DNA of 64,000 nt, taken from NCBI GenBank assembly GCA_024228115.1, contig JAAETT010000050.1:16750-80749 (forward strand), read 5' to 3'. The DNA comes from a bacterium. GTDB lineage: Bacteria > Myxococcota_A > UBA9160 > UBA6930. Both the position numbers and the translations under genes were made by a program. Under the pieces are notes generated by a model. The model was given only the letters and a program-made list of their open reading frames with translations, did not search any database and was not told the DNA's origin. Positions 1,271 through 60,991 of the stretch are shown in pieces; the stretch's first letter is position 1, and every line of letters starts with the position of its first letter.

Positions 1271-1284
1271 GACAGCCTCCTGCG

Positions 1285-2894: not shown

Positions 2895-2896
2895 GT

Positions 2897-9713: not shown

Positions 9714-9715
9714 TG

Positions 9716-10345: not shown

Positions 10346-11974
10346 CTAGTAGATGTCGTGCACGGTGTTGTGCACGTTCCACTTGCCGGTCGGGGTGACG
10401 AGCCAATCGCCCGTGATCCGCTTCTTCTCCTTCAGGGTCTTGTCGTCATAGACGATGATCTCGCCCTTCTTGTCCCAGACGGAGGTCCAGACCTCGTTGC
10501 CTTCCTTGTTGTACTCGAAGTGAACGATCTTGCCGTGCTCCGTAGCCTTCCAGCAGTTGGGCCCGTCGTCGAAAGAGGCTTTCTTGAAGACGCAGATCTT
10601 CTGGTTGTCGCCCTCTTCCTTGGCGATGGTGCTGTCCACCCAGATGTTCTCGCTCTCCGGATGCGTCTTCAGGAACAGCCCCGGCCCCATCGTCTCCTGT
10701 TCGCGAACCACCTTCCATGCGTGGTCGGGATGGCCCGCAGGATCGGAGCCGAAGACCGTGATCTTGCCCTCGCCCAGGTGGGTGGTGGCACTCACGGGGC
10801 CAAATTCAGGATCGACCCAGTTTGCGCCGCGTCCCGGATGAGGCTTTACGCCCGTCTCGAATTTCGCGACGAACTTCTTTTCCTTCGTGTCGATGACGAC
10901 CATCTGGTCACGCATGTTGGCCGCGATCAGCAGGTAGCGCTTGGTCGCATCCCAGCCACCATCGTGGAGGAACCGCTCGGAAGCGATCTGGGTCATCTTG
11001 AGATTGTCCAGGTCGGAGTAGTCCACCAACCAGACCATTCCGGTTTCCTTGATCGCTACGACCCACTCCGAGTCCGCGTGGGACGCGACGATCGTCGCAA
11101 CCCGGGGCTCCGGGTGATACTCGTTCGTGTCATAGGTCGACGAGCGTGTGGAGATGACCTTCTTCGGCTCCAGCGTCTGTCCGTCGAGGACGACCATCTG
11201 CGGCGGCCAGTAGCAGCCCACGACCGCGAGAGAGTCCTCGAAGTCGCCCTTCGGGCCCTTGTACTTGGACACGTCGATCGAGCGGGCATCCAGGCACGTG
11301 CGCACGGAGGCGACGACCTTGGGCTTGTCCGAGTAGAGATCGATCAGGTTGACGACGCCGTCGCGGCCGATCGTGTAGAAGTATCGGCCTGTCGCCGAGG
11401 CACGGAAGATGTGCACGGCGAACCCGGTATCGAGTACTTCGACGAGTTCCTTCGTGTCTCCATCGATGATCGCGCCCTTGCCGGCATCGCGAAGGATGAA
11501 GCCGAAGTAGTTCTGGATGTCCCGGTCATGCTCCGGCTTCGTCGGCCGAGCCTCGACAGGAACGATGACCTTGTGGCTTTCCGCCATCGCCTTCAGGCCC
11601 ATCTCGGGCGGAATCGGAGCCGGAATCTGGACGAATTTCGCCATCAGCGCCGTCTCGGCCTTCGTCATTTCACCGGTTCGACCCCAGCCGGGCATGCCGG
11701 CCTCGGTCCCGTCGAAGATCACTTCCTCGAGCTCGGGGAGGGTCTTCTTCAACATCTTCTCGTCGCTGATGTTGGGGCCCGTCGCTCCCTTGCGGAGGGC
11801 GCCGTGACATCCCGAGCATCGGTCGAAATAGATGAATTCGGCCTTGTCGAAGTCCTCTTCGCTCAGCTTCGGTGCGGCTTCGGCGCTTACGACCTGTGCG
11901 GCCAATGGCACCCATGCCATCAGGACAAGGCAGCTCAACGCGTTCAACCACCAGTTGGAATGAATTCGGCTCAT
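10346..11974 (-). CDS. nirS: Cytochrome cd1 nitrite reductase NirS
   Basis: Signal peptide, N-terminal haem c domain (CSGCH), about 430-aa d1 beta-propeller with typical blocks (GRYFYTIGRDG, RVATIVASH, HPGRGANW, TPTGKWNV). GGGAGA SD lies before the ATG at 11974. Confidence 0.95.
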   Translation of the reverse strand: MSRIHSNWWLNALSCLVLMAWVPLAAQVVSAEAAPKLSEEDFDKAEFIYFDRCSGCHGALRKGATGPNISDEKMLKKTLPELEEVIFDGTEAGMPGWGRTGEMTKAETALMAKFVQIPAPIPPEMGLKAMAESHKVIVPVEARPTKPEHDRDIQNYFGFILRDAGKGAIIDGDTKELVEVLDTGFAVHIFRASATGRYFYTIGRDGVVNLIDLYSDKPKVVASVRTCLDARSIDVSKYKGPKGDFEDSLAVVGCYWPPQMVVLDGQTLEPKKVISTRSSTYDTNEYHPEPRVATIVASHADSEWVVAIKETGMVWLVDYSDLDNLKMTQIASERFLHDGGWDATKRYLLIAANMRDQMVVIDTKEKKFVAKFETGVKPHPGRGANWVDPEFGPVSATTHLGEGKITVFGSDPAGHPDHAWKVVREQETMGPGLFLKTHPESENIWVDSTIAKEEGDNQKICVFKKASFDDGPNCWKATEHGKIVHFEYNKEGNEVWTSVWDKKGEIIVYDDKTLKEKKRITGDWLVTPTGKWNVHNTVHDIY

Positions 11975-12231
11975 GATCTGGGTCTCCCTGGTTCGATGGG
12001 CTGGATCGGTGCAACTCCTATGCCCGCATGCTCCTCCGCTCGCTGGTCGGGAGGGCCAATCCAGAAAGCCCAGCTTTGATGGGCATTCAGGCCATCAAGG
12101 AGATGGAAATGGGCCCCGGGGAGGGCCCGGCCAGTTGCCTCCGGGCGAGGAAGAACGACCCGGAATAACCGGTAGTGGGTCGAAATGCAGCAGTCAGCCA
12201 CTTCGCGCGGCCGATCGAGGCCAGCTCGGGC

Positions 12232-12246
12232 TGGCATTGCGTTTGC
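12232..12246 (+). promoter_or_regulatory. Candidate sigma54 -24/-12 element (TGGCAT-N5-TTGC) upstream of the DksA/TraR-type gene
   Basis: TGGCATtgcgtTTGC has consensus GG-to-GC spacing and lies about 60 nt upstream of the ATG at 12306. No cognate activator site was identified. Confidence 0.35.
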
Positions 12247-12305
12247 GTCTGGACCCAGGTGGGCCTTCGAAGTGGGCTCCGCTTTCAGTGGGGGTTTTGG
12301 GCACC

Positions 12306-12623
12306 ATGGTTTCAGTCGAAGCACATCAGAAGAGGCTCGAGGAGCGACGCCGGAAGATCGGTCGCCGGGTCGGGCGGATCACCGATGATCTGCGCCGCAC
12401 CCCGGATCCGGATTCAGAGGAACGGGCCACGGAGGCGGAGAACGACGAAGTCCTGGAGGGCCTCGACGCCGCGGGCCGGCAGGAGTTCGATGCCATCGAA
12501 GCGGCACTCTTGCGAATCGCTGCCGGTACCTTTGGCACCTGCGCCCAATGCGGCGGTGCGATCGACGAGCGCCGTCTCGAAGTGATTCCGCACACGCCAA
12601 CCTGCGTCGATTGCGCCAGCTGA
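12306..12623 (+). CDS. DksA/TraR-family C4 zinc-finger protein
   Basis: 105 aa, coiled-coil-like N-terminal part, CAQCG-x17-CVDC zinc ribbon at the C-terminus. Confidence 0.75.
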   Translation: MVSVEAHQKRLEERRRKIGRRVGRITDDLRRTPDPDSEERATEAENDEVLEGLDAAGRQEFDAIEAALLRIAAGTFGTCAQCGGAIDERRLEVIPHTPTCVDCAS

Positions 12624-12677
12624 CATCATTTTTCAGGCCCCGACATGTTCGACCGGAATCTTGATTCCCGTGCCGGT

Positions 12678-13865
12678 CTAGCCTTCGATCCCGTCGACGC
12701 GGTACCCGCCCGCGAGGTCGATTTCGAAACCGTGTTGGCGCAGTAGATCTTTGGCGATGGTGAGTTGTTGGATTTCACTCGTTCCGCCACCGACCGTCCA
12801 GAGCTTGATATCGCGGAACAACCGCTCCGGAGCATGCTCTCGGAGATAACCCGCGCCGCCCATGATCTGCATCGCGTCGAGCGCGGCACTGGCGGCCTTT
12901 TCGGTCGCATACCATTTGGCGGCACTGACTTTCCGCTCCGTCAGGTCTCCGTCCTTTTGTGCACGGATCAACTCGAACATCGAATTGCGAACGTTCTCGA
13001 GGGAAACGTACATACGGCCGAGTTTCTGTTGTGTGAGCTGAAACGCCGCGATGGGTTTTCCGAACTGAACCCGCTGGGTCGCATGCCTGACCGCTTCTTC
13101 GAGGCTGCGCTCGATCACACCCAGACACATCGCGACGATGACCGCGCGCTCGCCGCTCAATGTCTGTTCCGCAGTGGCGCGGGCGGGGCGATCCGGATCT
13201 CCCAGGAGATTCTCGCGGGGTACGCGCACGTCGTCGAGGAAGATGTCGCCCGTGGGAGAAGCATGCATGCCGAATTTCTGCAGCGGCGGCCCGGTCGTCA
13301 GGCCGTCCGTTCCGCGTTCTACGACAACGGGATAGATGCGTCGTTTGTCGCGCGAATCGCCTCCCTCGAGGCGTGCATAGATGAGCAGCACCTCGGCTTC
13401 CGGAGCGTTGGAGGAGAAAGCCTTGCTGCCATTCAGCACGACCTCGTCGCCCTCGATGCGCGCAGTCGTTTTCAGGGCAAAGGCGTCGGAGCCACTCTCA
13501 GGCTCGGTCAGCGCCCAACAACCCGCTTTCTTCAGCGAGAGCACGGGCATGCCGCAGCGCTGGATCAGTTCGGCGGAGCCTCGGGTGAGGATCGTCGCTC
13601 CGCAGCCGAAATTCGAAACGACGGAGAGCGCAAGACCCGGGCTCACGCGGGCGAGTTCCTTGGAGATGATGGCCGGGACAGCCGGGTCGGCGATGGCACC
13701 GGAGGTGATCAACCCCTCGATGTCGAGGGCATCGGACATTTCGCCCATGATTTCGAATGGCGAGAGGCTGCCGGCTTCGAGTTCGGGGATGCGTGGCTCG
13801 ATTTCGCGATTGCAGAAATCGCGGATCACGGACTCCATGACTTGTTGGGTTTCGTCGAATTCCAC
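12678..13865 (-). CDS. Acyl-CoA dehydrogenase family protein
   Basis: ACAD N-terminus (VEFDETQQVMESVIRDFCNREIEP) and C-terminal ...GGTSEIQ motif. GTG start at 13865 is preferred over the ORF-track start at 13913. Confidence 0.85.
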   Translation of the reverse strand: MEFDETQQVMESVIRDFCNREIEPRIPELEAGSLSPFEIMGEMSDALDIEGLITSGAIADPAVPAIISKELARVSPGLALSVVSNFGCGATILTRGSAELIQRCGMPVLSLKKAGCWALTEPESGSDAFALKTTARIEGDEVVLNGSKAFSSNAPEAEVLLIYARLEGGDSRDKRRIYPVVVERGTDGLTTGPPLQKFGMHASPTGDIFLDDVRVPRENLLGDPDRPARATAEQTLSGERAVIVAMCLGVIERSLEEAVRHATQRVQFGKPIAAFQLTQQKLGRMYVSLENVRNSMFELIRAQKDGDLTERKVSAAKWYATEKAASAALDAMQIMGGAGYLREHAPERLFRDIKLWTVGGGTSEIQQLTIAKDLLRQHGFEIDLAGGYRVDGIEG

Positions 13866-13965
13866 AATTCCCCCTGGGCGTTCCTGCGCAGAGCGCAATC
13901 GGGAAGAGCGCAATCATACTCATCTCCGCCGACTGGCGGGTTTCTCCAGCCGAACGGATCTGGCC

Positions 13966-14997
13966 CTAGGTGTGAAAGGTCTCGGCGATTGCGGTTGCGT
14001 AGAAGAACGCCTTCTCCGGGCCGAGGCCGTACGCCGGGGGGACGATGCAGATCGAATCGGCCAGGCCATCGAGCTTGCCGATCCGCTCGCGCACCTTTTC
14101 GGGCTCTCCGACGCTGACGAAGGCGCGCACCATTTCGTCGGGAACCAGGTGCGCGACGCTCATGTAGTCGCCTCGTTGGACACCCTCCTGGAGCTTGCGC
14201 GCGACATCGAGGAAGCCGTGTGCCTCGAAGAAGGATTCGTATTGCTTCACGCCGCCGTAGAACGCGATCGTCGGCCGTGAATCCTCGATGGCCTCGGCCT
14301 CGTTGGGATTGGGCGCCGCCCAGGGCCAGATATTGACCTCGATGTCGCTGCGGCCCCGGCCGGCGGCTTCGAGAGCCCGGTCGAGTTCCGGAGCCATCGA
14401 TTCCTTTGCCCACTCGATCGACCACATCGGGTGGCCGATCAGGCCGTCCGCGACCTGTGCCGCCATCCGGACCATCGGGGCTCGTAGGGCGGCGACCCAG
14501 ATTGGAATCTCCTCGCGCAGCGGCGCTGCCGTCGGCTGGAGTTCCTTGAAATCCGCCTGGTAGTACTCGCCTTCGAAGGGCTCGAGCCCCTTGTGAGCAC
14601 CGCTCACGATGTGGCGAATGGCTTCTACCGTTTCCCTCAGGTGCGTGACGGGCTTGTGCACGGGTGCGCCAAAGACTCCGTGGGACCATGCTTGCACACT
14701 CGCGCCGACGCCCAATGTGAAACGTCCACCGGAGATCCGATCCATGTCGATGGCGGCCATGGCCGTCTCGAAGGGGCTTCGGGCAGCCGCGATGGCGATG
14801 CCACTGGCCAATTGCAAGCGCTCCGTCACACCGGCCGCGACAGCCAGGGGTAGGAAGGGTGGGCCCATGACCTGCGGCGCGAAGCAACCATGGATTCCCC
14901 TGGCTTCGGCCTGGCGGGCCATTTCGACGAGAATCGGGGCGGGGAGCGGCTGCAGCACACTCCAGTGTCGCGGGCTCGAGGGTTCGCTGTTCGTCAT
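13966..14997 (-). CDS. Luciferase-like (LLM class) flavin/F420-dependent oxidoreductase
   Basis: 343-aa TIM-barrel LLM-type sequence (GRFTLGVGAS..., IWVAALRAPM...). Confidence 0.75.
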   Translation of the reverse strand: MTNSEPSSPRHWSVLQPLPAPILVEMARQAEARGIHGCFAPQVMGPPFLPLAVAAGVTERLQLASGIAIAAARSPFETAMAAIDMDRISGGRFTLGVGASVQAWSHGVFGAPVHKPVTHLRETVEAIRHIVSGAHKGLEPFEGEYYQADFKELQPTAAPLREEIPIWVAALRAPMVRMAAQVADGLIGHPMWSIEWAKESMAPELDRALEAAGRGRSDIEVNIWPWAAPNPNEAEAIEDSRPTIAFYGGVKQYESFFEAHGFLDVARKLQEGVQRGDYMSVAHLVPDEMVRAFVSVGEPEKVRERIGKLDGLADSICIVPPAYGLGPEKAFFYATAIAETFHT

Positions 14998-15027
14998 CGA
15001 TTGCCTCCCGGCGTTGTCATGCAGGCT

Positions 15028-15672
15028 TCAGTTCTTCCGACTCATCCGTTCGATCCCACCGAGGAAGAGCTCGGTGGCAAATGTGGTTGCCTTCTCCACG
15101 TCGGCCTTCGTGCGTACGCAATGGATCGCCAGCTCACTCGCTACACCGATGGCGGCCAGGGCGACGAGATCGAAATCCATCGCGGGCACGACGCCCTCCT
15201 TCGCCTTGGAGCGAAGATCCTTCGTGAGATCGGCGATCGCCGGCTCCAATGCCTTGTGAGACATCAGTTCTTCGATCTCTCCGGCGTTGCGTGTCAGCAG
15301 CGCCAGGACCATTTCGTCCTCGACGAAGATTTCGAAGCAGATCCTGAACGCGGATCGCAGCAGGTCTTCCAGCGTTTCTGCGGCTTCGCGGGCTTCGTGG
15401 ACGCGTCTTCGGAGTTCGATCTGGAAATCGCCGATGAGCTCGTGGAGCAGGGCTTCCTTGTCGGGGAAGTAGTTGTAGAAGGTGCCGCTGGCCAGGTCGG
15501 TACGGCGAGTGATGTCACGCACGGTCGTGGCACCGAATCCCAGTTCGCAGAAGGCATCGTGGGCAGCCCGGAGGATTTCCGCCCGATTGCGCGCGGCATT
15601 GCGTGCACGCTTGCCGATCTCGACCTCGCCGTCTTCCTCGTGGCGGCGCGACGGCGTACTCCGTCCGCTCAA
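15028..15672 (-). CDS. TetR/AcrR family transcriptional regulator
   Basis: N-terminal HTH (RNRAEILRAAHDAFCELGFGATTVRDITRRTDLASGTFYNYF). The start overlaps the upstream ligase stop. Confidence 0.85.
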   Translation of the reverse strand: MSGRSTPSRRHEEDGEVEIGKRARNAARNRAEILRAAHDAFCELGFGATTVRDITRRTDLASGTFYNYFPDKEALLHELIGDFQIELRRRVHEAREAAETLEDLLRSAFRICFEIFVEDEMVLALLTRNAGEIEELMSHKALEPAIADLTKDLRSKAKEGVVPAMDFDLVALAAIGVASELAIHCVRTKADVEKATTFATELFLGGIERMSRKN

Positions 15673-17288
15673 GATCGCTCGACGAAGACGTTATCCGCAT
15701 CCTTGGAGAAAGCGGCCAGGAGAAAGCGCTCCTGGGGTTTCTCGGAGGCCGTCTTGGGAATTTCGTCGACGACCTGGAGGTAGGAAGGTACGAAGTTCGA
15801 TTCCAGGGCAGTGCGACATGCTTCGAAGACGGCCGCGGGAGAAAAGCCGGCGGCATCCGTCGGTACGATGGCCGCGACGACGTCCTTCTCTCCCGGAGCG
15901 CCAGAGGCAGCCTCGACCCCATAGATGAAGACGTCCGTGACTGAGGGCACCTCCGCGATCGCCTTCTCGACGAAACTGATGTTGACGAAATCGCCGTTAT
16001 GGCGGATTCCTCCGCCCTTTCGGTAGTCGAAGTAGAACCAGCCCTCGGCATCGGTATGGCCGATGTCGCCGCTACGAAGCCAGCCGCCGCGGGTCTTCTT
16101 CTCCGAAGCCGACGGATTCTCGTGGTACTCGACGCTCGCGCCGCTGCCATCCATCGGCCGCGAGCAGATCTCACCCTGAACGCCGGCCGGGCATTCCTGG
16201 TCGTTTTCGTCGAGGACCTTCATCTCGAGCCCCGGGGCCGGCTTCCCGAAGGAACCCATCGGGCCCGTGCCGCCCGGGTTGAAGGCGAGCCCGCCCTCGA
16301 TGGCGCCGTACCATTCGAAGATCTCTACCTGGAAGCGTTCCGCGAACGATTCCCAGATGGCTGCCGGCATTCCGGCGCTCATCACGCGGCGAACCGGATT
16401 GTCGCCGTCGTTCGGCTTTCGCGGTTCCGAGTAGATGGCCGTGGCCATGCCGCCGAGCAGCGAAAAGCTGGTGCAGCCTCGCGTGCGACACACGTCCCAG
16501 AGCTTCGACTTCGTGAACTTCCGGCTGAAGACGCCGCGAAGACTCATCGCCAGCGACGGACCGAGCGTCACGGCCTGGGCATTCCCGTGGGTGAGCGAGA
16601 GGCCCGTGTAGGGGCGCTCGTCCGGCTGGTAGCCCGCGATCAATCCGACGCCGGCATAGGAGCCAAAGCGGGCATTGGGGAAGACGACGCCCTTCGGGTC
16701 GCCGGTCGTTCCAGAGGTGTAGATGATCTGCAGGGGATCGTTCGGACCCTCGAGGCGGACATCCACCGTCGATGCCGGCTTGGAAAGCACTTCGGCGAGT
16801 GAGTCGACACCTCGGGCTTCCGAGAGCGGAAGGAGGTCCTTCCCTTCCCCGGATTCGAGGGCCAGGACCCATGCGATGTCCGCATTGTCCTTCTGCGCCG
16901 AGACGATCTCGCGCAGGGCGTAGTCACCGCATACCGCACCGTGGCAGCCGGCGTTGCGCAACATGTACGCCAGCTTCTCGCCCTTCGTCCGAGGGTCGAT
17001 CGGCACGAAGACACAGCCGGTGATGGAGGCGGCGATCATCGCCTCCACGAACTCCGGGTGGTTGCGCATCATCAGGGCGAAACGATCGCCGCGCTCCATG
17101 CCACGCTCGATCAGTGCTGCCGCAAGCCGGTTGCCGTTCGTCGTCAGCTCCGAGTAGGTGCGAACCTCGTCCGGCGTCGCGTCACCGTCGAGGCTCAGGT
17201 GCTCGAAGGTGAGGACGTCGAGGTCGGGCTTCTGTTCGGCGCGGATCTGCACCAGATCCGCCAGGATCATTTCACTGCGTTCGCGCAT
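15669..17288 (-). CDS. AMP-dependent acyl-CoA synthetase/ligase
   Basis: AMP-binding motif IIYTSGTTGDPKGV and a C-terminal ...SGDIG... block; 539 aa. Confidence 0.9.
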   Translation of the reverse strand: MRERSEMILADLVQIRAEQKPDLDVLTFEHLSLDGDATPDEVRTYSELTTNGNRLAAALIERGMERGDRFALMMRNHPEFVEAMIAASITGCVFVPIDPRTKGEKLAYMLRNAGCHGAVCGDYALREIVSAQKDNADIAWVLALESGEGKDLLPLSEARGVDSLAEVLSKPASTVDVRLEGPNDPLQIIYTSGTTGDPKGVVFPNARFGSYAGVGLIAGYQPDERPYTGLSLTHGNAQAVTLGPSLAMSLRGVFSRKFTKSKLWDVCRTRGCTSFSLLGGMATAIYSEPRKPNDGDNPVRRVMSAGMPAAIWESFAERFQVEIFEWYGAIEGGLAFNPGGTGPMGSFGKPAPGLEMKVLDENDQECPAGVQGEICSRPMDGSGASVEYHENPSASEKKTRGGWLRSGDIGHTDAEGWFYFDYRKGGGIRHNGDFVNISFVEKAIAEVPSVTDVFIYGVEAASGAPGEKDVVAAIVPTDAAGFSPAAVFEACRTALESNFVPSYLQVVDEIPKTASEKPQERFLLAAFSKDADNVFVERS

Positions 17289-17298
17289 GCTTCCCTCT

Positions 17299-18531
17299 TC
17301 AGGACTGGAGAATCGTCACGACCATCGCGGCAACATCAGGGCCGATGTTGCCTCCGCCATTCTGGGCCAGCCCGACGCGGGCTCCCTCGACCTGGCGGTC
17401 TCCGGAGCGTCCCTGCAACTGCTCGGCCAGCTCGACGATCTGGGCGATGCCCGTAGCACCCACGGGATGGCCCTTGCGAAGCAAGCCGCCCGAGGTGTTG
17501 ACCGGCAGGCGCCCGCCGAGGCGCGTTGTGCCGTCGCTGACCAGCTTGCCGCCCTCACCCTTCGGGCAGAGCCCCAGGTACTCGTAGGCCATGACCTCGG
17601 CCGGGGCCGAGGCGTCGTGCAATTCAACGACGCTCAGGTCTTCCGGGCCCACGCCGGCCTCTTCGTAGGCCGTTCGCGAGCAGACCTCGCCCGCACCGTC
17701 CTCGCCGTACTCGTGATCCCAACCGGAACGCAGCACGCTCGAGGTGATCTTCACGGGTTTCTGGATGCCGAGCTCGCGCGCCTTGGCTTCGCTGACGAGC
17801 ACGACCGCAGCCGCGCCGTCGCCGATCGGCGAGCACATGGGGCGCGTCAGAGGCTCGGCAATCATCGGAGAGGCCAGCACGTCTTCGATGGACAGAGCCT
17901 CCCGAAACTGCGCCCGCGGGTTCATGCTTCCGTGGAAGGAGTTCTTCGCCGAGACGCCGGCGAATTGCTCGACGGTGGTTCCATAGTTGGCCATGTGTCC
18001 GCGTGCGGCGGCGGCGTAGATGTCCATGAACATCGAGCGCTTTTCGCCCGCGCCGGAAGCGCCGCTCTTGGCACCGCTCTCCTTCGCACTCTCCTGCAGG
18101 CGCTTCATGATCCCTTGCATGGCCTCGACATCCACCGCGCCGCTGAACGCCGCAAAGGACTTCCGCTTGTCCGCGTGGTAGAGCTTCTCGACGCCCAGCG
18201 CGAGAACGACGTCGTAGAGACCGGCGGACACCATCGCGGCTGCTTCGTGAAGTGCCGTCGAGGAGCTTGCGCAGGCATTCTCCACGTTCACGACCGGCAG
18301 CTTGCCGAGGCCGATCGAGCGAAGGATGACCTGGCCGCGGATACATTCCTGACCCGTAACGAGGCCGGCGGCCGCGTTGCCGACATAGGCCGCTTGCAGA
18401 TCGTCCAGGCCGAGGCCGGAATCGGCGATGGCCAGCTGGACCGCGTCGGCACCCAGGGCCTTGAGACCCGTTTCCATATGCTTTCCGAAGGGCGTCATCC
18501 CGACACCCGCGATGACCGCGTTCAGTTTCAT
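17299..18531 (-). CDS. Thiolase (SCP-x/lipid-transfer-type acetyl-CoA acyltransferase)
   Basis: Thiolase fold blocks (VENACASSSTAL, ...NTSGGLL..GHPVGATG). Confidence 0.9.
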   Translation of the reverse strand: MKLNAVIAGVGMTPFGKHMETGLKALGADAVQLAIADSGLGLDDLQAAYVGNAAAGLVTGQECIRGQVILRSIGLGKLPVVNVENACASSSTALHEAAAMVSAGLYDVVLALGVEKLYHADKRKSFAAFSGAVDVEAMQGIMKRLQESAKESGAKSGASGAGEKRSMFMDIYAAAARGHMANYGTTVEQFAGVSAKNSFHGSMNPRAQFREALSIEDVLASPMIAEPLTRPMCSPIGDGAAAVVLVSEAKARELGIQKPVKITSSVLRSGWDHEYGEDGAGEVCSRTAYEEAGVGPEDLSVVELHDASAPAEVMAYEYLGLCPKGEGGKLVSDGTTRLGGRLPVNTSGGLLRKGHPVGATGIAQIVELAEQLQGRSGDRQVEGARVGLAQNGGGNIGPDVAAMVVTILQS

Positions 18532-18573
18532 CCGTTCACTCCTATGTTCTCGCCCCGGATCCGATGAGCCGGC

Positions 18574-19362
18574 TCAAAGCAGGCCGTGCCCCTTTACGCC
18601 GAGGGCATTCTTCAAGTATTCGAGTTCTTCCTCGCGCCAGGCTGTTGGTGACTGGCTCTGGATCAATCCGTCCGCTTCGAGTTCGTCGAGCACTTCCTGG
18701 GAGCGCGGGAACGCATTCCCATAGCCATTCATGTGGAAGAGCTTGTCGAAAGGCTGGCGAGGGCGCTGGCCGCCCGCCTCCGGGCTCTCGGCCGGGTAGC
18801 CCACCGTCTGCAGGAGTAGCACGCGACAGGATTCCGGCAGCCCCAGGTTCTCGCGAATCTGCTCGCCGTGAGGCGTCCCCAGGCAGCAGGTTCCGAGCCC
18901 CTGTTCGAACGCCATCAACGTGGCCTGGGCGATGCCCTGTCCACAGTCGATTTCATTCATGCCCGGCTCCTTGAACTGCTCGAGGAGCGATGAGAAGATC
19001 GGGATGATCTGCTCCTCGAGGGCCTTCTCCTTGCCTTCGCCAAAGCCGAGGGCACCGGCCTTCAACAGCTCGCGAAGCCTGTCCGATTGCTCGTCGACCG
19101 CTGCCGTCTCCAGGTACCAGACGATCACGACCGGAGCGATGCGGATCTGGAAGCCGGCGATCGGTGCGAGCAGCGCGTCCCTCACCTCCTGCGAAGCCGT
19201 GTCCTTGAAGACGACCACGGCGCGCAGGCTCTGCACGTTCCCCCAATGAGAGGCAATGCGCGCGGCTTCCAGCATGCGCTGGATCTTCTCGGGCTCGACG
19301 GGCTTGTAAGGCAGCAGGAAGCGTATGGATCGCCTGTTGCCGATGACCTGCCTGAGTTCCAT
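18574..19362 (-). CDS. Nitroreductase-family flavoprotein
   Basis: RRSIRF N-terminal motif and size/composition typical of the family. Confidence 0.7.
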   Translation of the reverse strand: MELRQVIGNRRSIRFLLPYKPVEPEKIQRMLEAARIASHWGNVQSLRAVVVFKDTASQEVRDALLAPIAGFQIRIAPVVIVWYLETAAVDEQSDRLRELLKAGALGFGEGKEKALEEQIIPIFSSLLEQFKEPGMNEIDCGQGIAQATLMAFEQGLGTCCLGTPHGEQIRENLGLPESCRVLLLQTVGYPAESPEAGGQRPRQPFDKLFHMNGYGNAFPRSQEVLDELEADGLIQSQSPTAWREEELEYLKNALGVKGHGLL

Positions 19363-19403
19363 TTCCTGATCTCCTCTCCCTCTGGGTTCCGTTCCTCGGC
19401 GAT

Positions 19404-20609: not shown

Positions 20610-20888
20610 GAGATCCTCCCGAGGGCGATGCCAGTCGCCATCGGCATTCAACACGAAGATGACACCTGCGTCAAGTTTCGAATTGGAAATAGTTCACCCG
20701 ATCCCGACCGGGCCGATCGCCCACCGCAGGGCGGGAGTAGGAGACGTGCATGAACGAGCAGTGGCGAGCTCGCCCTGAGATCCACTGACGAGCGCCCGCC
20801 TCACGAGGCCTACACACAGCGCATCGCGTGCGGGTCGGCTCCTTTCACCAGTCGTCAGATCACCCCTCTGAGCCGAGGGCCTGGATCC

Positions 20889-27284: not shown

Positions 27285-27381
27285 GGGAGCACGTTCTGGG
27301 CTGGTGTGCTGGCCTCATCGCACCGGAATTCGTTCCGGGCGCAGCGCTACGTCTCGCGCGAATTCGGGGACATCGCTCTAT

Positions 27382-28437: not shown

Positions 28438-28761
28438 GGAGGTCTTCCCAGAGGATTGGAGCGAAGTTTCCGGCGGTGGGTTGGCCGGCCGGCGTCCAGT
28501 TGACCCTCCGAGCGGACCGTACCAGACGCCCTATGTCAATTCCAGAGTCAGGTCGCTTCCCTGTCCGTTTCAGATACGCGGAACCTCCTTCGCTGCTTTC
28601 ACCCTCCGACCGACTGTGCGAACGAGTCTCCATTGGAACGCCAACTCGGCGCTGTGCTCCTCGGCCTTCGCGGTGACGGCTGTCGGGATCCTCGGCGTCG
28701 CGCCCCGGCGGCCAGACCGGCCCACGTAGCGTACCGTCGGGACAACCGCAGGAGGTCACCG

Positions 28762-29160
28762 ATGGCAGAGACACTGGAAGCAGGCCGAGAGTTCGAGTTG
28801 AAGCGCGAAGTGACGCCGGAGCTGACAGCCGATCGATACGGCAATCCCGGAGCGTTCGTATTCGCGACGCCGATGCTGGTGGGGCTGCTCGAAGAGGCGG
28901 CGATCCGCTGTGTCGCGGAGGCGCTCGAGCCGGATGCTGCGACCGTCGGCACCCGTGTCGATGTCGAGCACAAGGCCGCCACACCCGTCGGCCTGACGGT
29001 CACTGCGCGAGCGCGTTTGATCGAAGTCGATCGACGGCGTCTGGTATTCGAGGTGGAGGCGCACGACGACCGCGAGCTGATCGCCACTGGCACCCACGAA
29101 CGCTTCGTCCTGAAATCGCTCAGCAAGTTCCTGGAGAGCGCCGCCCAGAAGGCGAGCTGA
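28762..29160 (+). CDS. Hotdog-fold thioesterase
   Basis: 132 aa with a hotdog-type pattern (ATPMLVGLLEEAAIRCV...VDVEHKAATPVG). GGAGG SD lies before the ATG at 28762. Confidence 0.65.
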   Translation: MAETLEAGREFELKREVTPELTADRYGNPGAFVFATPMLVGLLEEAAIRCVAEALEPDAATVGTRVDVEHKAATPVGLTVTARARLIEVDRRRLVFEVEAHDDRELIATGTHERFVLKSLSKFLESAAQKAS

Positions 29161-29216
29161 TCACTACAGCGCCAATGGGCGAGTCGACCGGGGCCCTTCT
29201 TCGATCCGTCCTGAGA

Positions 29217-30980
29217 TCAAGGGCTCCAGTCGGGCTCGAGGATTCCGGCGAGGGCTTCGACGAGAGACGCATTGGGATACGGCTTGCGAAGGAAGGCCGT
29301 CGCGGGCTCGCGGATGAGGCCTTCGGCCGCGCGCTCTTCCTCGTAGCCGCTGCTCAGGAGGACGGGAAGAGATGGCCACCGCTCGCGAAGACGGATGTAG
29401 GTCTCGCTCCCGCTGAGTCCCGGCATGGTCATGTCGAGGACGACACCGTCCAGGCCGGTGACCGCAGCGGCTCTTTCGAGCGCCTTTTCCCCGTCGGAAG
29501 CCTCTTCCACGAAGCAGCCACGGCTCTCGAGGACGCGGCGCACGAAGCTGCGGATCGCGGCTTCGTCGTCGACGACGAGGATGCGACGCCCGGCGAGGAA
29601 TGGCAGATCGTCCTCACGCCCGGCGTCCCGCACCCTGTCCATCGAGGCGGGCAGGAAGAGCCGGAAGCACGACCCGCGCCCGAGGTCCGAATCGACGCTG
29701 AAGCCCCCGCCGTGGCTGCGCGCGATACCGAGCGCCGCGGCAAGCCCCAGCCCGCGGCCCTGGGGTTTCGTCGTGAAGAACGGATCGAAGACGTGAATCT
29801 GGTCCTCCTCCGCGATGCCGGCACCTGTATCTCGCACTTCGATGCACACGAAGGTCGCCGCCGGTCGGCTCTCGGGCGGCTCGAGCTGCCCCGCAGCGGC
29901 CCTGTCGAGCACCTCCATGCTCGTGCGGACGGAGATCTGGCCCCCGGAATCTGGCAGCGCCTCTCCCGCATTCAGGAGCAGGTTCATGACGATCTGCTGT
30001 AGCTGGGCTGCGTCGCCCCGGACCGTCGACTGCGCGGGATGCAAATCGCAAGTGAGCGAGGCCGAGGCGGGAAGAGAGGCCTCAACCAGCGCCAGGGTTG
30101 CACGCACCAACTCGTTCACGTCCAGCGGCTCGTCATCGAGGCGACTACCGCCCGCGTAGGAGAGGAGTTGCCCGGTCAGAAGTGCGGCCCTCTCTGCCGC
30201 CGTGATGACCTCCGCGAGATCGCCCTGCGCCGCCGAAGATTCCGGGAGATCACGGCGGGCGAACTCGGCATGCCCCAGGATGATCAACAGGAGGTTGTTG
30301 AAGTCGTGGGCGACGCCGCCGGCCATCCGCCCGAGGCTCTCGAGGTTCTGGGTCTTCAGGAGCGTCTCCTGCAGTCGCTCCTTTTCGGCCACCTCCAACT
30401 CGAGGGTCTCGATGCTCCGCTCGAGTTCCAACTGCCGGTTCTCGTTGTCCAGCTGCAGGGCGCCCAGCCGGTCCATGTAGAGCCGTCGCCAGATGTGGAT
30501 CACGATGGCAAGGACCCCGCTCGTCGTGAGCATGATGGCGGACTGCGCCCACTCCTCTGCCGACTCGCTCCTCGCGACGGTGGTGGCGACGACAGCAACC
30601 ACCCCCGCGCCCAACGCGCCGAGGAAGATGGACGAGGTCAGGAAGAAGGAGCCGCCGATGAGCACGAGAGCAAGGGCGTGAAGGTATTGGGGCTCCGGAA
30701 AGAGGAAGAGATAGATCGCGGTGTTCGCGAGCGTCGCAATGCCCAGGCCGAGCACGCAGGCATCCACGCTGGGTTGACGGGGTGGCTGGCGAATCCATCG
30801 GAAGCCGATACCCATCAGGACCGCTGCCGTCAGGGCGGCGGCGCCGCAGATCCACCAGGACGCGGGCGCGTCCACGGTCCGGCTGTGGATCCAGACCAAT
30901 GCGGCGTACCAGGCGCCGATGGCAAGCGCGGCCGCGCCGAGGGCGGAGCGAACCGAGGACACCATTGCCGGGACCTGCAT
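29217..30980 (-). CDS. Hybrid sensor histidine kinase / response regulator (multi-TM input)
   Basis: About six N-terminal TMs, coiled coil, HisKA H-box (GGVAHDFNNLL), HATPase (DTGAGI, GRGLGLA) and a C-terminal receiver (ILVVDDE...LDMTMPG). Start MQVPAM at 30980. Confidence 0.85.
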   Translation of the reverse strand: MQVPAMVSSVRSALGAAALAIGAWYAALVWIHSRTVDAPASWWICGAAALTAAVLMGIGFRWIRQPPRQPSVDACVLGLGIATLANTAIYLFLFPEPQYLHALALVLIGGSFFLTSSIFLGALGAGVVAVVATTVARSESAEEWAQSAIMLTTSGVLAIVIHIWRRLYMDRLGALQLDNENRQLELERSIETLELEVAEKERLQETLLKTQNLESLGRMAGGVAHDFNNLLLIILGHAEFARRDLPESSAAQGDLAEVITAAERAALLTGQLLSYAGGSRLDDEPLDVNELVRATLALVEASLPASASLTCDLHPAQSTVRGDAAQLQQIVMNLLLNAGEALPDSGGQISVRTSMEVLDRAAAGQLEPPESRPAATFVCIEVRDTGAGIAEEDQIHVFDPFFTTKPQGRGLGLAAALGIARSHGGGFSVDSDLGRGSCFRLFLPASMDRVRDAGREDDLPFLAGRRILVVDDEAAIRSFVRRVLESRGCFVEEASDGEKALERAAAVTGLDGVVLDMTMPGLSGSETYIRLRERWPSLPVLLSSGYEEERAAEGLIREPATAFLRKPYPNASLVEALAGILEPDWSP

Positions 30981-31146
30981 GGCGTTAGCATACGGCTCTG
31001 GGAATCCATTGCCGCAAAGATGTCCGGCAGTCGATGCTTCGGATTCGAGAGCAGCGACGTCCCCAAGGACCTGCTCCCACGGGCAGGGAACTCCCCTTGC
31101 CGAGGAGGCCCCTGCGGCGGAGCAGGCGCTACGATTGGCCCGCCCC

Positions 31147-32367
31147 ATGGAAAGCCCCACGATACCCGCCAACGTCTTCACGCCCGGCCGACTCGGCCCG
31201 CTGGCGCTGCGCAACCGCGTGGTCAAATGCGGTACGAACGAGGGCAAGGCAAGGGCCGGGCTCGTGACCGATCGCTTGATCGACTGGCATCGGGAGTTCG
31301 CCGCCGGCGGGGTCGGGATGTCGACGTTGGCCTACTGCTCGGTGTCGGCGGAGGGGCGGACGTTCGGGGATCAGATCTGGATGCGTGACGAGGCGGTGCC
31401 GGGGCTCCGGCGCTTCGCCGATGCCATGCATGCCGATGGGACCAAGGCCTCGATCCAGCTCGGACACGCGGGCTGGTTCGCGCATCCGCGGGCAACGGGG
31501 AAGAAGCCTGTCGGCCCCTCGGCGACTTTCAGCCCTCACGCCCTGCGTTTCGCACGTGCAATGAGCGAGACCGACTTCGAGCGCATGACCGGGGAGTACG
31601 GGCGGGCCACACAGTTGGCCGCGAGCGCGGGCTTCGACGCCGTGGAGATCCATCTCGGGCACGGCTATCTGCTGAGCCAGTTTCTCAGCCCGTTCAACAA
31701 CCGGCGCTCCGATCAGTGGGGCGGCAGTATCGAGAATCGCGCCCGCTTCCCGCGTCAGGTGCTGAACGCGGTGCGCGAAGCCGCGGGGCCGGACGTCGCG
31801 GTGTATCCGAAGCTCAACATGGACGACGGCTTCCGCGGCGGGCTCACGCTTGAAGAAGGGATCGAGGTCGCGCGGATGATCGAGTCGGACGGCAGTGTCG
31901 ACGCGTTGCAGCTCACGGGCGGGCATACGACCCAGACTCCGATGTATCTCATGCGCGGCGGGGTTCCGTTGCGCGAGATGATTCGTGGCGAGCGCGACTG
32001 GGTGCGGAAGTTCGGTATGGCGGTGTTCGGCAGAAAGCTGATTCGCGGCTATCCCTTCGAAGAGGCGTTCTTCCTGGAGAAGGCGCGACGCTTCAAGCAG
32101 GCCGTTCGGCTCCCGATCATGTTACTCGGCGGTGTCACGACCCTCGAGACCATGAACAATGCCATCGCCGAAGGCTTCGACTTCGTCGCGCTCGGGCGGG
32201 CGCTGATCTGCGAGCCCGATCTCGTCGAGAGCATGCGCTCGGGCCGAGCACTCGGATCGGCGTGCGACCACTGCAACCAGTGCATCGCCGAGATGGAACG
32301 CGAGGGCGGTGTGCGCTGCGTCCTGCACGATCAGCAGGGCTCGAAGCCGGTGCAGCCGAGCAGATAG
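31147..32367 (+). CDS. Old Yellow Enzyme-family NADH:flavin oxidoreductase
   Basis: OYE blocks (IQLGHAG, EIHLGHGYLLSQFLSPFNNRRSDQWGGSIENRARF). Confidence 0.85.
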   Translation: MESPTIPANVFTPGRLGPLALRNRVVKCGTNEGKARAGLVTDRLIDWHREFAAGGVGMSTLAYCSVSAEGRTFGDQIWMRDEAVPGLRRFADAMHADGTKASIQLGHAGWFAHPRATGKKPVGPSATFSPHALRFARAMSETDFERMTGEYGRATQLAASAGFDAVEIHLGHGYLLSQFLSPFNNRRSDQWGGSIENRARFPRQVLNAVREAAGPDVAVYPKLNMDDGFRGGLTLEEGIEVARMIESDGSVDALQLTGGHTTQTPMYLMRGGVPLREMIRGERDWVRKFGMAVFGRKLIRGYPFEEAFFLEKARRFKQAVRLPIMLLGGVTTLETMNNAIAEGFDFVALGRALICEPDLVESMRSGRALGSACDHCNQCIAEMEREGGVRCVLHDQQGSKPVQPSR

Positions 32368-32375
32368 AGGACGAC

Positions 32376-33110
32376 ATGGCGAAGGATCGAGGACCGGGGG
32401 ATGGCGCCGGCCGCACGGATTTCACGCCGCACTTCGACGCTGTGAAGACCACCGGCGCCGATGCCTGGGAGCAGAAGCGTCGGCTCGCCCAGGCGATGCG
32501 GCTGGTGATCGAGCGACTGGTCCCGAGCAACGCCCCGGCGGATGAGCTGCGAATCGCCGCCGAGCGCCTCGAGGCATACGCCGAGGCGTTGAAGGCACAT
32601 CCCCGACTGCTGCGGCAGCACGGACACGGTGAGTCGGCGAACTCCGGCGATGTCGGCGCCTTCTTCGATCAGAGCCCGCTCATCGGCCTCGCAAACCCGC
32701 TGGCGCCGCCGATCACCATCGGCAAGACGGGCGAGCGCACTGCGGCGGCCACTGTGACCTTCGGCTCCGCCTACGAGGGGCCGCCCGGCTCGGTCCACGG
32801 TGGCTACATCGCCGCGGCCTTCGACGAGGTGCTGGGTTTCGTCCAGTCGCTCTCCGGCAAGGGCGGTTTCACCGGGACGCTCACCATCAAGTACCGCAAG
32901 CCGACACCTCTCCACCAGGAGCTCTACTTCGAGGCGGGTATCAGCCGCATCGACGGCAAGAAGATCTTTGCCGAAGGGCGGCTCTATGCGGGCGATGTCT
33001 TGTGTGCCGAAGCCGAGGGAATCTTCATCAGTATCGACGAGGCCAGGATGGTCGAGCTGATGAAGCGGCGTGAGGCGTACGAAGCCCGCCACTCGCAATC
33101 GGGAGAGTGA
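32376..33110 (+). CDS. PaaI/YbgC-like hotdog thioesterase
   Basis: Core SVHGGYIAAAFDEVLG is typical of PaaI-type thioesterases. Confidence 0.65.
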   Translation: MAKDRGPGDGAGRTDFTPHFDAVKTTGADAWEQKRRLAQAMRLVIERLVPSNAPADELRIAAERLEAYAEALKAHPRLLRQHGHGESANSGDVGAFFDQSPLIGLANPLAPPITIGKTGERTAAATVTFGSAYEGPPGSVHGGYIAAAFDEVLGFVQSLSGKGGFTGTLTIKYRKPTPLHQELYFEAGISRIDGKKIFAEGRLYAGDVLCAEAEGIFISIDEARMVELMKRREAYEARHSQSGE

Positions 33111-33273
33111 GCGCCGCGTTGCCATTTCGCTTCCTGCGGGAAGCCCTGGCCTTCGATGGCTCGAGTCCGAGTTCTTCGAGTACGGTTCGCGGCGGCCACG
33201 TCCGGCAAGCCGCGAATGCGCCATTGTACTCGCTCGGATACCGCACCTAGACTGCTTCAGGGGGTCCACCGAG

Positions 33274-34278
33274 ATGCTTCGTGTGTTGCGCTGGCTGCTA
33301 TCCGGTCTGCTCGGACTGCTCGTCGTCGGCTTTGCAGTGCTGATGATCGGGGCCCGGGTCGGGCTCGACGGGGAGCGGCGCCATTCCGCGCACACCGCAG
33401 CCCTCCCCGTGGCGTCGCCGAGCAGTGACGACGGATTGGTCCGGGTTCGTGCGGGCGAGTTCGAGTTCCGCGCTCGGGTCGCCGGTCTCTCCAACACGGG
33501 ACCGCCACTGATCCTCCTTCACGGCTTTCCTGAGACCTCGGCGATGTGGAAGTCGCTTCTCCAGGAGGCAGCGTCTCTCGGCTATCGCGTCGTTGCGTTC
33601 GATCAACGCGGATACAGTCCCGGCGCGCGCCCGCAGAACGTCGAGGACTACCTCATCCCCAAGTTGGTCCGGGACGTGATCGATGTTGCCGATGCCTTCG
33701 GCTTCGAGCGCTTTCATCTCGTCGGGCATGATTGGGGTGCGGTCGTCGGCTGGTCGACTGTGGGCCAGCACCCGGACCGCATCCGATCCTGGACTGCGCT
33801 TTCGATCCCCCACTCCGGCGTCTTCGTGAAGGCCATGGAGAGGGATCTGCCGGCGTACATCGACGTCTTCAATCTCCGATTCCTCGCGGATGCGGTGTTC
33901 ACCTTCAACGGCCTCGCACTTCTGGATCGCACCGTCTTCTCGGCGCTTCCCGAAGGCGACGAGTACCTGGCCGTGCTCTCCGAACCCGGGGCGCTCTCCG
34001 CCGCGATCCACTGGTACCGGGCGCTGCGTCCGAGCATTCCAGCGGCAGCCGACATCCCGCTGGAGATCGATCTGCCCGTTCTCTTCATCGGTGGGGATCA
34101 GGACTATTGGCCGAATCGCCCCGAGCGTGCGCAACAAGCCGCCTTCATGAAGGGTCCTTTCACGGAACTGGATCTGGATGCCGGCCACTATCTCATGGCG
34201 GAACAGCCGGATGTCGTGATCGAGGCCGTCATCGCCCACCTCGGCCGAGTCGATGCGGGGCCGGCTCCGGGCCCCTGA
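33274..34278 (+). CDS. Alpha/beta hydrolase, epoxide-hydrolase/haloalkane-dehalogenase-like
   Basis: N-terminal TM, HGFPETSAMW oxyanion motif, GHDWGA nucleophile elbow. Confidence 0.8.
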   Translation: MLRVLRWLLSGLLGLLVVGFAVLMIGARVGLDGERRHSAHTAALPVASPSSDDGLVRVRAGEFEFRARVAGLSNTGPPLILLHGFPETSAMWKSLLQEAASLGYRVVAFDQRGYSPGARPQNVEDYLIPKLVRDVIDVADAFGFERFHLVGHDWGAVVGWSTVGQHPDRIRSWTALSIPHSGVFVKAMERDLPAYIDVFNLRFLADAVFTFNGLALLDRTVFSALPEGDEYLAVLSEPGALSAAIHWYRALRPSIPAAADIPLEIDLPVLFIGGDQDYWPNRPERAQQAAFMKGPFTELDLDAGHYLMAEQPDVVIEAVIAHLGRVDAGPAPGP

Positions 34279-34612
34279 ACCGCCGTCCACTCCGGTCGCT
34301 GAAAGCTCCTGGAGTCCGTTGTGGTCCCATCGCCGGAATTCCAATTGCACGGCAGGTCCGCACTTCGGTCCCTACACGACTACATCGGCGTGTATCGCTG
34401 CGAACCCCGTCAACGCGCAACGTCGGGGGCGACGATCGTTCTCACGAGTGAGGACGAATGGTATACGGCAACAGACCAGGTGCTGTCTCGATCGGTAGTT
34501 CGACCTCCCGACCGGCAAGGACGTGCAGACGCCCCGTGGAATGTCCACGCCATGGCGAGACAACCACGATGCTCTCTTTCCGGAGTAGGCGACTGGGTGC
34601 TAGCCTTTCCGC

Positions 34613-37288
<2,676 letters not shown>

Positions 37289-37479
37289 AGGACGAGCGCT
37301 GCTCCCGCTCCCACGGCTTCGATCCCACCGACGCCTTGGTGAGTTGGAAGGTCGTGTTGAACACCGCACTGGATGACCCGTCGTCGGGTCGAGCCGCACC
37401 ACGGTCCGGGCCGTTTCCGACCCGGTCCGAGGCGCGGCGCGCCCGAGTGCGGACGATCCCCAAGTGGCCCTTCTCGCTG

Positions 37480-38619
37480 CTAGGGGCCGATCGGTCCCGT
37501 TTTCTTGATCTGCTCCAGGTAGTCGTTGTCCCACTCGCCCTCGACGTTCACGTGGGCGGCGGCGCCCTTCAGCACGGCGTCGATCAGGTTGTGGTTCAGG
37601 TACACGTAGAGACCCGGCTGGACGAACTTGTAGAGCGCGGCGCCGGCGGAGCCACCGGCGATGAACCACGTCTCGAGGTCCGTCTGGGGCGGATCGGAGA
37701 AGGAGCCGCTGGCCCATACGTAATCGCCGTGGCCGCCGATCAGGTGGGGACGGGTGTCGCGGTTCGCCTGGGAGTGGAGGAAGAGCACCGTCTCCCCCAC
37801 CTTGGCCGTGAGCGAGCTCTCACCCGTGAGCGCGCCAACTGCGCCATTGAAGACGACGTGGCTGGGCTCGTTGGTCTTCATCACCTCGAGCGTCTCGGGC
37901 ATCGCTGCGGCCGGACCGTCGTACTCCTTGTACCTGCCGTCGATGCCCTTGGCGACGTAGAAGTCCTGCTCACCGATGTAGTAGGCCTTGTCGTAGCGCA
38001 GCGGCTTTCCGGAGCGATCCTTGAGGCCTTCGCGAGGCAGCACCATGATGGCGCCGTTCATTCCTGCGACCACGTGGTAGGGGATCATCGCGCCACCGGG
38101 CGCGCAGTGGTAGACGAACACTCCGACCTTGGTGGCCTTGAAGCGGATCGTGGCTTCCTGGCCAGGGTTCACCAGTGTCATGCCCGCACCGCCCAGGGCG
38201 CCGGTCACGGCGTGCAGATCGATGTTATGGCTCATGATGTTCGAAGAAGTACCCTCCCAACCCTCGCCCCCGGTGATCTCGCCGGCAGGGTTCACGAGTG
38301 TGAGCTCCACGTAGTCGCCCTCGTGCACCACGATCATCGGCCCGGGAACGCTGCCCTGGAAGGTCAGGGCGTTGAGCTTGGTGCCCGCACCGTCGATCAC
38401 CAACTCCCGCTCGACCACTTCGAGCCGGACCTCGACGATCACCGGATCGCCCTTCGCCACCTGGTCGTGCTTCGGCAGGAAAGGCGGCTTCACCATCACC
38501 TGATTCACCCGTCGCAGACCCTCGGCCTTCGAGGGCTTGTCCGCCGCAGCCGGGCCGACACCCACCACGAACGCAAGCGCCACGAGCACTGCGAGTCGAG
38601 TCATCGAGATTCTTCTCAT
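37480..38619 (-). CDS. nirK: Copper-containing nitrite reductase NirK
   Basis: Signal peptide. Cu ligand blocks [36 protein letters not shown] and [21 protein letters not shown]. The ATG at 38619 (GGAGGG SD) overlaps the SCO1 stop (ATGA). The 562-aa ORF in the track is an upstream extension. Confidence 0.93.

Positions 38620-59432: not shown

Positions 59433-60991
<1,559 letters not shown>

Follow-up and report, generated by a model that had tools for sequence, protein, structure and literature searches.

Why would a bacterium keep two enzymes for one reaction, the reduction of nitrite to nitric oxide (NO)? The question is raised by a 64,000-nucleotide stretch of the 85.9-kb contig JAAETT010000050.1 (assembly GCA_024228115.1), called the window here, which carries both nirS, the gene for the cytochrome cd1 nitrite reductase, and nirK, the gene for the copper nitrite reductase. 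The two genes serve as mutually exclusive markers when denitrifiers are counted and classified, and a stably linked pair breaks this assumption for marine-sediment surveys. The window belongs to a nitrogen-oxide respiration island of an uncultured, high-GC marine bacterium. A preliminary description of the window had offered two explanations for the pair, either a partition of roles or the recent acquisition of one copy. Our reading, to which we give a probability of about 0.6, is that nirS and nirK are parallel nitrite-to-NO routes that differ in wiring and control and lie within a native N-oxide island.

Two nitrite reductases in one island

The nirS gene (10346..11974, minus strand) encodes 542 amino acids and was identified by Pfam and by alignment to solved NirS structures. 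A Cytochrom_D1 domain (E 4.5e-122) lies behind an N-terminal Cytochrome_CBB3 domain, and together they cover residues 43–537. Residues 26–542 align end to end with NirS of Pseudomonas aeruginosa (1NIR/1BL9; 556 bits, E 6e-166), against 157 bits for the paralogue NirN (6RTD) and 36 bits for NirF (6TV2). The HMMER alignment to 1BL9/1NIR shows that the CSGCH haem c motif and the equivalent of Met88 (GMPGWG) are kept. The d1 ligand His182 (GFAVH) and the catalytic His327 (FLHDGGWD) and His369 (PHPGRGAN), in P. aeruginosa numbering, are kept as well. The preliminary description had called this NirS intact from its CSGCH haem c domain and d1 propeller; its coordinates were right, and all haem ligands and catalytic residues are in place. 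An open reading frame upstream of nirS (11971-12324, minus strand) has no family matches and is probably spurious. The true neighbour is a DksA/TraR-type zinc-finger gene (12306-12623, plus strand), which is divergent from nirS and has a sigma54-like site of its own, TGGCATTGCGTTTGCG, at 12232-12247.

The nirK gene (37480..38619, minus strand) encodes 379 amino acids. An exact look-up of the product gave no match, and a 99%-identical cluster member, P0121, stood in for it. Where the curated cut-off of TIGR02376, 'copper-containing nitrite reductase', is 296.3 bits, NirK reaches 466.8, and its matches to solved NirKs are at about 463 bits. The type-1 copper ligands (H131, C172, H182, M187), the type-2 ligands (H136, H171, H343) and the catalytic residues (D134 and H292, with I294) are all present. 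Their equivalents His95, Asp98, His100, His135, Cys136, His145, Met150, His255, Ile257 and His306 are invariant in 9 members of the clade. NirK is therefore as intact as had been claimed, and its position was also given correctly. A longer open reading frame of 562 amino acids is spurious; the real nirK start overlaps the stop codon of senC by 4 nt. We also observed a loop of 13–17 amino acids before the first type-1 copper histidine (residues ~112-127, window 38230-38270; consensus ..GV...E.W.GT..N). Of the 9 aligned clade sequences, 8 have the loop, whereas solved NirKs and a 77%-identical homologue (P0240) lack it; an effect on the docking of the redox partner is possible.

The source metagenome-assembled genome (MAG) is labelled only 'bacterium' at NCBI; the labels of its relatives are Deltaproteobacteria or Myxococcota. 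The loci of these relatives carry the labels L001–L118 here, L118 being contig JAAELY010000545.1. The best match in a scan of genome contigs was Meg19_02_Bin_150 (93% identical), and the complete MAG chromosome CP070734.1 (bin407) encodes a NirS of 80% identity. At least four related uncultured MAGs or contigs with the above labels have both NirS and NirK. The two genes are 2.5 kb apart in Meg19_02_Bin_151, where senC, nirK, a histidine kinase gene, a response regulator gene, nirS and c554 are followed further on by napA on one 53.6-kb contig. On the Joint Genome Institute (JGI) contig Ga0194120_10001042, senC-nirK is directly followed by nirDL-nirF-nirJ, nirN, a cytochrome c gene, napB, napA, napD and nrfD. 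In the Myxococcota MAG SMAG_U16444 (DASPGF01), nirS lies on contig 230, apart from nirDL-rrf2-x-senC-nirK on contig 376; Meg19_46_Bin_116 (JAFDEI01) likewise has the two genes on two contigs. JAAELY010000545.1 joins the nirS-nap cluster and a gene for a nitric oxide dismutase (NOD)-like protein on one 116-kb contig. Its island also holds the block of acyl-CoA dehydrogenase, thiolase and AMP-ligase genes that parts nirS from nirK in the window.

Since the source is a metagenome-assembled contig, an assembly join between the nirS locus of one organism and the nirK locus of another had to be considered. A second public assembly, GCA_024449855.1, did recover the two loci on separate short contigs. 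These contigs, however, reproduce the local structure of both loci: one of 7.7 kb is 99.9% identical to window positions 8916-16604, and one of 6.0 kb is 99.7% identical to positions 35389-41407. The composition of the window is uniform. GC is ~64%, coding frames are marked by a GC content at third codon positions (GC3) near 0.8, and the tetranucleotide usage of each 8-kb segment correlates at 0.95-0.985 with the remainder. In relatives the same gene blocks are linked and both genes occur on single contigs; the genes between nirS and nirK recur in the island of JAAELY010000545.1. The junction of nirS with the LLM/acyl-CoA dehydrogenase genes is also common to the closest relative, L005, whose NirS is 93% identical. 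A chimeric contig is thus extremely unlikely.

The recent acquisition of one gene by horizontal transfer is not supported either. In its favour, the genes, both on the minus strand, are 25.5 kb apart with unrelated metabolic genes between them. The pairwise-identity matrices of NirS and NirK are also not congruent (r = -0.52), but the six pairs come from four genomes, too few taxa in too star-like a radiation for the comparison to be used either way. Against a transfer stand the four or more related lineages that have both genes and the presence of the acyl-CoA, thiolase and AMP-ligase block in the island of JAAELY010000545.1. Compared with relatives at 73–83% protein identity, NirS and NirK are about equally diverged (77–81% at the amino acid level; synonymous divergence, dS, 0.8–1.1 for both), and the ratio of nonsynonymous to synonymous divergence (dN/dS) is 0.09–0.19 for both genes. 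GC3 is 0.84 in nirS and 0.87 in nirK, and the tetranucleotide composition of both agrees with the rest of the contig. No integrase, transposase or other mobile-element gene and no tRNA was seen in the window or flanking either gene. Both genes are under purifying selection and native to the lineage, of which the NirS and NirK pair is a stable trait. Because the loci are reproduced, relatives have both genes, selection and composition are as described and mobility genes were not seen, we consider a recent acquisition very improbable.

Electron supply and control of nirS and nirK

The nirS gene heads a run of 11 genes on the same strand, with gaps of 0–25 nt except for 155 nt before napA. The order is nirS, a c554-like tetrahaem cytochrome, a membrane tetrahaem cytochrome, an NrfC-like iron-sulfur (FeS) subunit, NrfD, a napL-like gene and napD, A, G, H and B. 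The soluble c554-like cytochrome (9716..10321) has a signal peptide and four CxxCH motifs and matches PF13435 (E 1.2e-19) and Nitrosomonas c554 (1BVB, E 4e-11). The second tetrahaem cytochrome c (9081..9713; four CxxCH) starts with a hydrophobic, putatively transmembrane segment and shows weak similarity to NrfB (2OZY, E 0.005) and to NapC/NirT. The FeS subunit (8165..9094) is of the NrfC/PsrB/ActB type, with Fer4_11 and related domains and an SRRKFL motif for twin-arginine translocation (Tat). Its start was set from the gene calls of L001 and relatives, and its solved relatives are ArrB (6CZ7), the 'NrfC protein' 2VPW and ActB of Alternative Complex III (ACIII). The NrfD-family integral membrane subunit (6929..8152; PF03916, E 1.4e-39), with a putative quinol site, is nearest to ACIII ActC (6F0K_C, 6BTM_C) among solved structures. 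Together, an NrfD-family subunit, a Tat-exported multi-cluster ferredoxin and two tetrahaem cytochromes are co-encoded, which places the four genes with NrfCD/ACIII-type modules. The order nirS, c554, tetrahaem cytochrome, FeS subunit, NrfD recurs in about 20 related loci.

The run continues with the genes for periplasmic nitrate reductase (734..5934): napD (5683-5934), napA (2897-5527), napG (2109-~2900), napH (1285-~2115) and napB (734-1270), assigned from Pfam matches to Molybdopterin with a TAT signal, Fer4 and NapB. The nap order, with NapD annotated, is the same in L111 and L003. In the interval between nrfD and napD lies a gene for a periplasmic WD40 beta-propeller (5925..6944; WD40 Pfam matches and, at an internal start, a signal-peptide-like N-terminus). 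It is kept next to napD in L005 and L111 and directly upstream of napD in a Kiritimatiellia MAG (L024). In position and predicted fold we take it to resemble NapL of the nap operons of Campylobacterota.

Converging on napB from the window start are a fragment of nirN, a gene for haem d1 maturation (1..291, plus strand; the last 96 or so codons, running off the edge), and a small mono-haem cytochrome c gene (291..719, plus strand; one CxxCH, CARCH). The nirN fragment is 63–67% identical to the C-termini of 473–474-amino-acid Cytochrome_CBB3+Cytochrom_D1 proteins of relatives. Its homologue in L112 scores 309 bits against P. aeruginosa NirN (6RTD) and 75 bits against NirS. The cytochrome c is 59% identical to the one beside nirN in L112. 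Because a nirN fragment lies at the edge and nirN of relatives is flanked by nirJ, nirF and nirDL, as in L041 and L112, the remaining d1 haem genes probably lie just outside the window.

A candidate sigma54-type promoter, GGGCATAGGAGTTGCA, lies 36 nt upstream of the nirS ATG (12010..12025, minus strand; GG-N10-GC, 9/11 consensus matches). The element aligned in three of five relatives (L005, L111 and L112) and was not seen in L003 and L006. Similar sites lie at 5575-5560 ahead of napA and at 59342-59327 ahead of qnor, the gene for a quinol-dependent NO reductase. There are 11 such sites in 128 kb (both strands), so that ~0.06 would be expected in the roughly 700 nt of upstream sequence where 3 were observed. 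None of the relevant upstream regions has an FNR/Dnr box (TTGAT-N4-ATCAA, with at most 1 mismatch), and we found no operator common to the nirS and nirK upstream regions. A 23-bp inverted repeat upstream of nirS, TTGATGG-N9-CCATCAA (12076-12098), was rejected as a regulator site because 16 orthologous upstream regions and those of nirK and the NOD-like gene lack it.

The nirK unit is organized differently. Its first gene encodes a lipoprotein-like product (39382..39942, minus strand; lipobox LSGC, no Pfam or NCBIfam match), homologues of which, 43–61% identical, lie upstream of senC in L003 and L031–L038. It is followed by senC, the gene for an SCO1/SenC copper chaperone (38616..39368, minus strand; PF02630, E 9.6e-37), and nirK; the senC-nirK pair is kept in about 14 related loci. 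Divergent from this unit, and upstream of the NOD-like gene, is a gene for an Rrf2-family Fe-S regulator resembling IscR and NsrR (40195..40638, plus strand; PF02082, TIGR00738; C-x6-C-x5-C-x2-H motif). An Rrf2 gene also adjoins the nirK unit in L031, L114 and L116. The nirK unit has no dedicated electron donor gene, and no sigma54-like site was found ahead of it or of the NOD-like gene. It lies beside the Rrf2 gene and the NOD-like gene. The preliminary description had given each reductase its own accessory genes. This stands: NirK has senC and the lipoprotein gene, and NirS has the electron-transfer module and the nirN fragment rather than the usual nirS/d1 operon.

A partition of roles by different wiring and regulation is plausible from these data, and the different promoter types, regulators and electron-supply wiring lend it circumstantial support. 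In the mechanism that we propose, (mena)quinol would be oxidized at the complex of NrfD, FeS subunit and membrane cytochrome. Electrons would then pass to the soluble c554-like cytochrome and on to haem c and haem d1 of NirS. NirS would have a private electron supply, independent of bc1 and coupled to the reduction of nitrate through NapGH. The cluster is flanked by genes for haem d1 maturation, nirN in the window and nirJ, nirF and nirDL in relatives. The nirK gene, in turn, appears to be translationally coupled to senC behind the conserved lipoprotein gene. Because its unit holds only a copper chaperone, NirK would draw on general periplasmic carriers and use a different regulator. The signal to which it responds would differ too, and might be copper supply, Fe-S status or NO. 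The NO formed would be consumed by the canonical qNor, under NorR/sigma54 control, and possibly by the NOD-like paralogue too. We rejected, on general redox grounds, a NirS that runs oxidatively like the chain from HAO through c554 to cM552 in ammonia oxidizers, because quinones lie at far less positive potentials than the nitrite/NO couple.

The two enzymes might instead be simply redundant. They would then belong to one regulon and do the same job with the same electron pathway and NO sink, as insurance against copper or iron/haem limitation. Insurance against metal limitation has been proposed for the Bradyrhizobium and Pseudomonas stutzeri strains that have both genes. Relatives place nirK inside or beside the nirS/d1 cluster, Rrf2 genes adjoin either reductase gene among them, and senC suggests reliance on the supply of copper, all of which would suit a back-up enzyme. 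The dedicated four-protein electron module and sigma54-type promoter of nirS, neither of which the nirK unit has, are hard to square with identical wiring and control. We consider redundancy possible, though we doubt it.

Several points weigh against separate wiring and control in a native island. An Rrf2 gene lies directly upstream of nirS in L006 and L111, so both reductases may share NO-responsive control, which would weaken a clean regulatory split. The upstream region of nirS lacks the NorR-type boxes found at qnor. The C-terminus of nirN is the one haem d1 gene part within the window. We infer the direction and the partners of the c554/NrfCD-like module only from homology and gene order, and the proposal as a whole draws on the sequence of an uncultured organism. 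The non-congruent identity matrices belong here too, and gene exchange within the clade may have occurred.

The clade lends itself to asking, as a natural experiment, why two non-homologous enzymes persist for the same reaction. The genes differ visibly in promoter type, neighbouring regulator and ownership of an electron-supply chain. The module linked to nirS suggests a bc1-independent route to NirS, which, if true, would change the energy conserved per nitrite reduced in this group.

The NO-consuming enzymes and their neighbours

The preliminary description had also suggested that the two reductases might supply NO to two different NO-consuming enzymes. This idea fits the presence in the window of a canonical qNor and a NOD-like paralogue. 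The canonical qNor (56935..59316, minus strand; 985 bits to qNOR of Achromobacter xylosoxidans) retains its metal-ligating HH pair and, at the quinol site, HYTVEG. Divergent from it is a gene for a NorR-like regulator with GAF, sigma54-activator and helix-turn-helix domains (59429..60991, plus strand; Pfam). In the 59317-59428 interval between them, four or five GTTATGA/TCATAAC half-sites accompany a sigma54-type site, TGGCCCGTGACTTGCT, and the whole looks like a typical NorR-controlled promoter.

The paralogue (41088..43403, plus strand; 771 amino acids) was aligned to Geobacillus stearothermophilus qNOR (3AYF). As sequence criteria for NOD we used the change of a metal-B histidine to asparagine, the change of a nearby catalytic glutamate to glutamine and the loss of quinol-binding residues (Ettwig 2012, PMC3413370). 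In the window protein, His560 is replaced by Asn (HN for HH at 559/560) and Glu581 by Gln, and at the quinol site His328 is replaced by Met and Glu332 by Arg. The product of 41088-43403 therefore has these sequence features of a NOD. Homologues at about 70% identity carry the JGI name 'nitric oxide dismutase'. The enzymes are termed 'putative', and their reaction is described as theorized (PMC3413370; bioRxiv 10.1101/2023.11.21.568154). The presence of nod genes in marine Deltaproteobacteria/Myxococcota MAGs has already been reported (bioRxiv 10.1101/2023.11.21.568154).

The NOD-like gene is followed by hemA, and the order Rrf2, NOD-like gene, hemA recurs in L117. Its adjacency to nirK is conserved in part, being present in L117 and absent in L003. 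Upstream of the gene we noted two perfect palindromes, CAACCAAGTTGGTTG and CGTCATATGACG (window 40958-40989). A GTCATATGAC core, which may be the Rrf2 operator, is kept upstream of the NOD-like orthologues in L117 and L118 and was not found upstream of nirS or nirK.

A set of genes recurs beside the NOD-like gene in window 46321-54854 and in JAAELY010000545.1. It encodes an AurF/R2-like di-iron oxidase, a hemerythrin, a DUF2249 protein, a 435-amino-acid protein without a family match, a LuxR-type regulator, a COX3-like protein and Coq4. In JAAELY010000545.1 the neighbourhood has a P450 and a globin in addition. Several of these products bind or use O2. The 435-amino-acid product (49197-50504) corresponds, at 82% identity, to the N-terminal half of an 852-amino-acid protein annotated as NnrS in L003 (1230-3788). 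In the window its gene is followed by a separate gene with a Cytochrom_C_asm domain (50760-51545), and the discrepancy may reflect the fusion or splitting of a gene, or else a difference in gene calling. Relatives also share a conserved cluster in which two COX1-like genes and one COX2-like gene lie together with senC, UbiA and a cytochrome b/Fer4/FlpD fusion (L111 2374-9246; L112 2609-9516; L117 979-9107). The cluster adjoins nirS in L111 and L112, lies between nirK and the Rrf2/NOD-like genes in L117, and is absent from the window. It may encode an unusual haem-copper oxidase or NO reductase.

A more ambitious reading, which we think unlikely as a whole, would join all these parts. The nirK, nirS, nap, qnor and NOD-like genes would form one conserved, constantly reshuffled island in an uncultured marine clade, and its two nitrite reductases would not be redundant. 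NirS would receive its electrons from a c554/NrfCD-type quinol dehydrogenase of its own and, expressed from a sigma54 promoter, would serve a respiratory nitrate-to-N2O pathway ending at qNor. NirK, under the Fe-S Rrf2 regulator, would supply NO to the NOD-like enzyme, which would turn it into intracellular O2 for the recurring O2-dependent neighbours, namely the AurF/R2-like di-iron oxidase, hemerythrin, flavin and LLM monooxygenases and, in relatives, P450.

Comparison with known systems

Our literature search found no paper that describes the linked nirS/nirK pair of this clade and nothing relevant on a nirS–c554–NrfCD module, which, in a limited library, is weak evidence. The preliminary statement that nirS and nirK usually reside in separate genomes, with a minority carrying both, agrees with two surveys. 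Both genes were found in ten genomes, among 458 with nirK and 110 with nirS (Graf 2014, PMC4250227), and in 5.3% of nir-carrying assemblies (Pold 2024, PMC10999283). The latter survey drew its NirS clade 1f from Myxococcota and other phyla in saltwater habitats (PMC10999283). The pairing in the window is a real, well-conserved further example of this minority genotype (about 5%), and it establishes no new principle. Two further details are of modest interest, the electron module that NirS would have to itself and the presence of a NOD-like gene in the neighbourhood.

Both nirS and nirK are present in Bradyrhizobium oligotrophicum and in some Pseudomonas stutzeri strains. As in such genomes, the window has intact cd1 and copper reductases, each with a maturation helper, and further denitrification genes. 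Here, however, the pair is kept across several uncultured Myxococcota/'Deltaproteobacteria' MAGs and is linked in one island at distances between 2.5 and 25 kb; in some of them nirK adjoins haem d1 genes.

The canonical nirS operons are nirSMCFDLGHJEN in Pseudomonas and nirSECFDLGHJN in Paracoccus. The NirS ligands are identical to those encoded here, and homologues of NirN, NirJ, NirF and NirDL occur in the clade. In place of nirM/nirC and the d1 genes, nirS is followed by genes for the c554-like cytochrome, the membrane tetrahaem cytochrome, the NrfC-like FeS subunit and NrfD and by nap, and the d1 genes lie on the far side of nap.

The module shares a multihaem cytochrome, a Tat-exported polyferredoxin and an NrfD-family subunit with NrfABCD of Escherichia coli (NrfB pentahaem cytochrome, NrfC FeS protein, NrfD quinol dehydrogenase) and with ActA/B/C of ACIII. 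Like the E. coli system, it stands next to a periplasmic nitrite reductase. The terminal enzyme here is the NO-forming NirS, however, and not the ammonia-forming NrfA, and the cytochromes are tetrahaem, one of them related to Nitrosomonas c554. Unlike ActB of ACIII, the FeS subunit has no molybdopterin-like domain.

The NOD-like protein shares the His-to-Asn and Glu-to-Gln changes and the loss of quinol-binding residues with the putative Nod of 'Candidatus Methylomirabilis oxyfera', strain HdN1 and marine MAGs (PMC3413370; bioRxiv 10.1101/2023.11.21.568154). A nitrite reductase was present in only 4 of 32 nod-containing MAGs (Elbon 2024, bioRxiv 10.1101/2023.11.21.568154). The organism described here differs in that it is not a known methane or alkane oxidizer and has, in addition, a canonical qNor and the two nitrite reductases.

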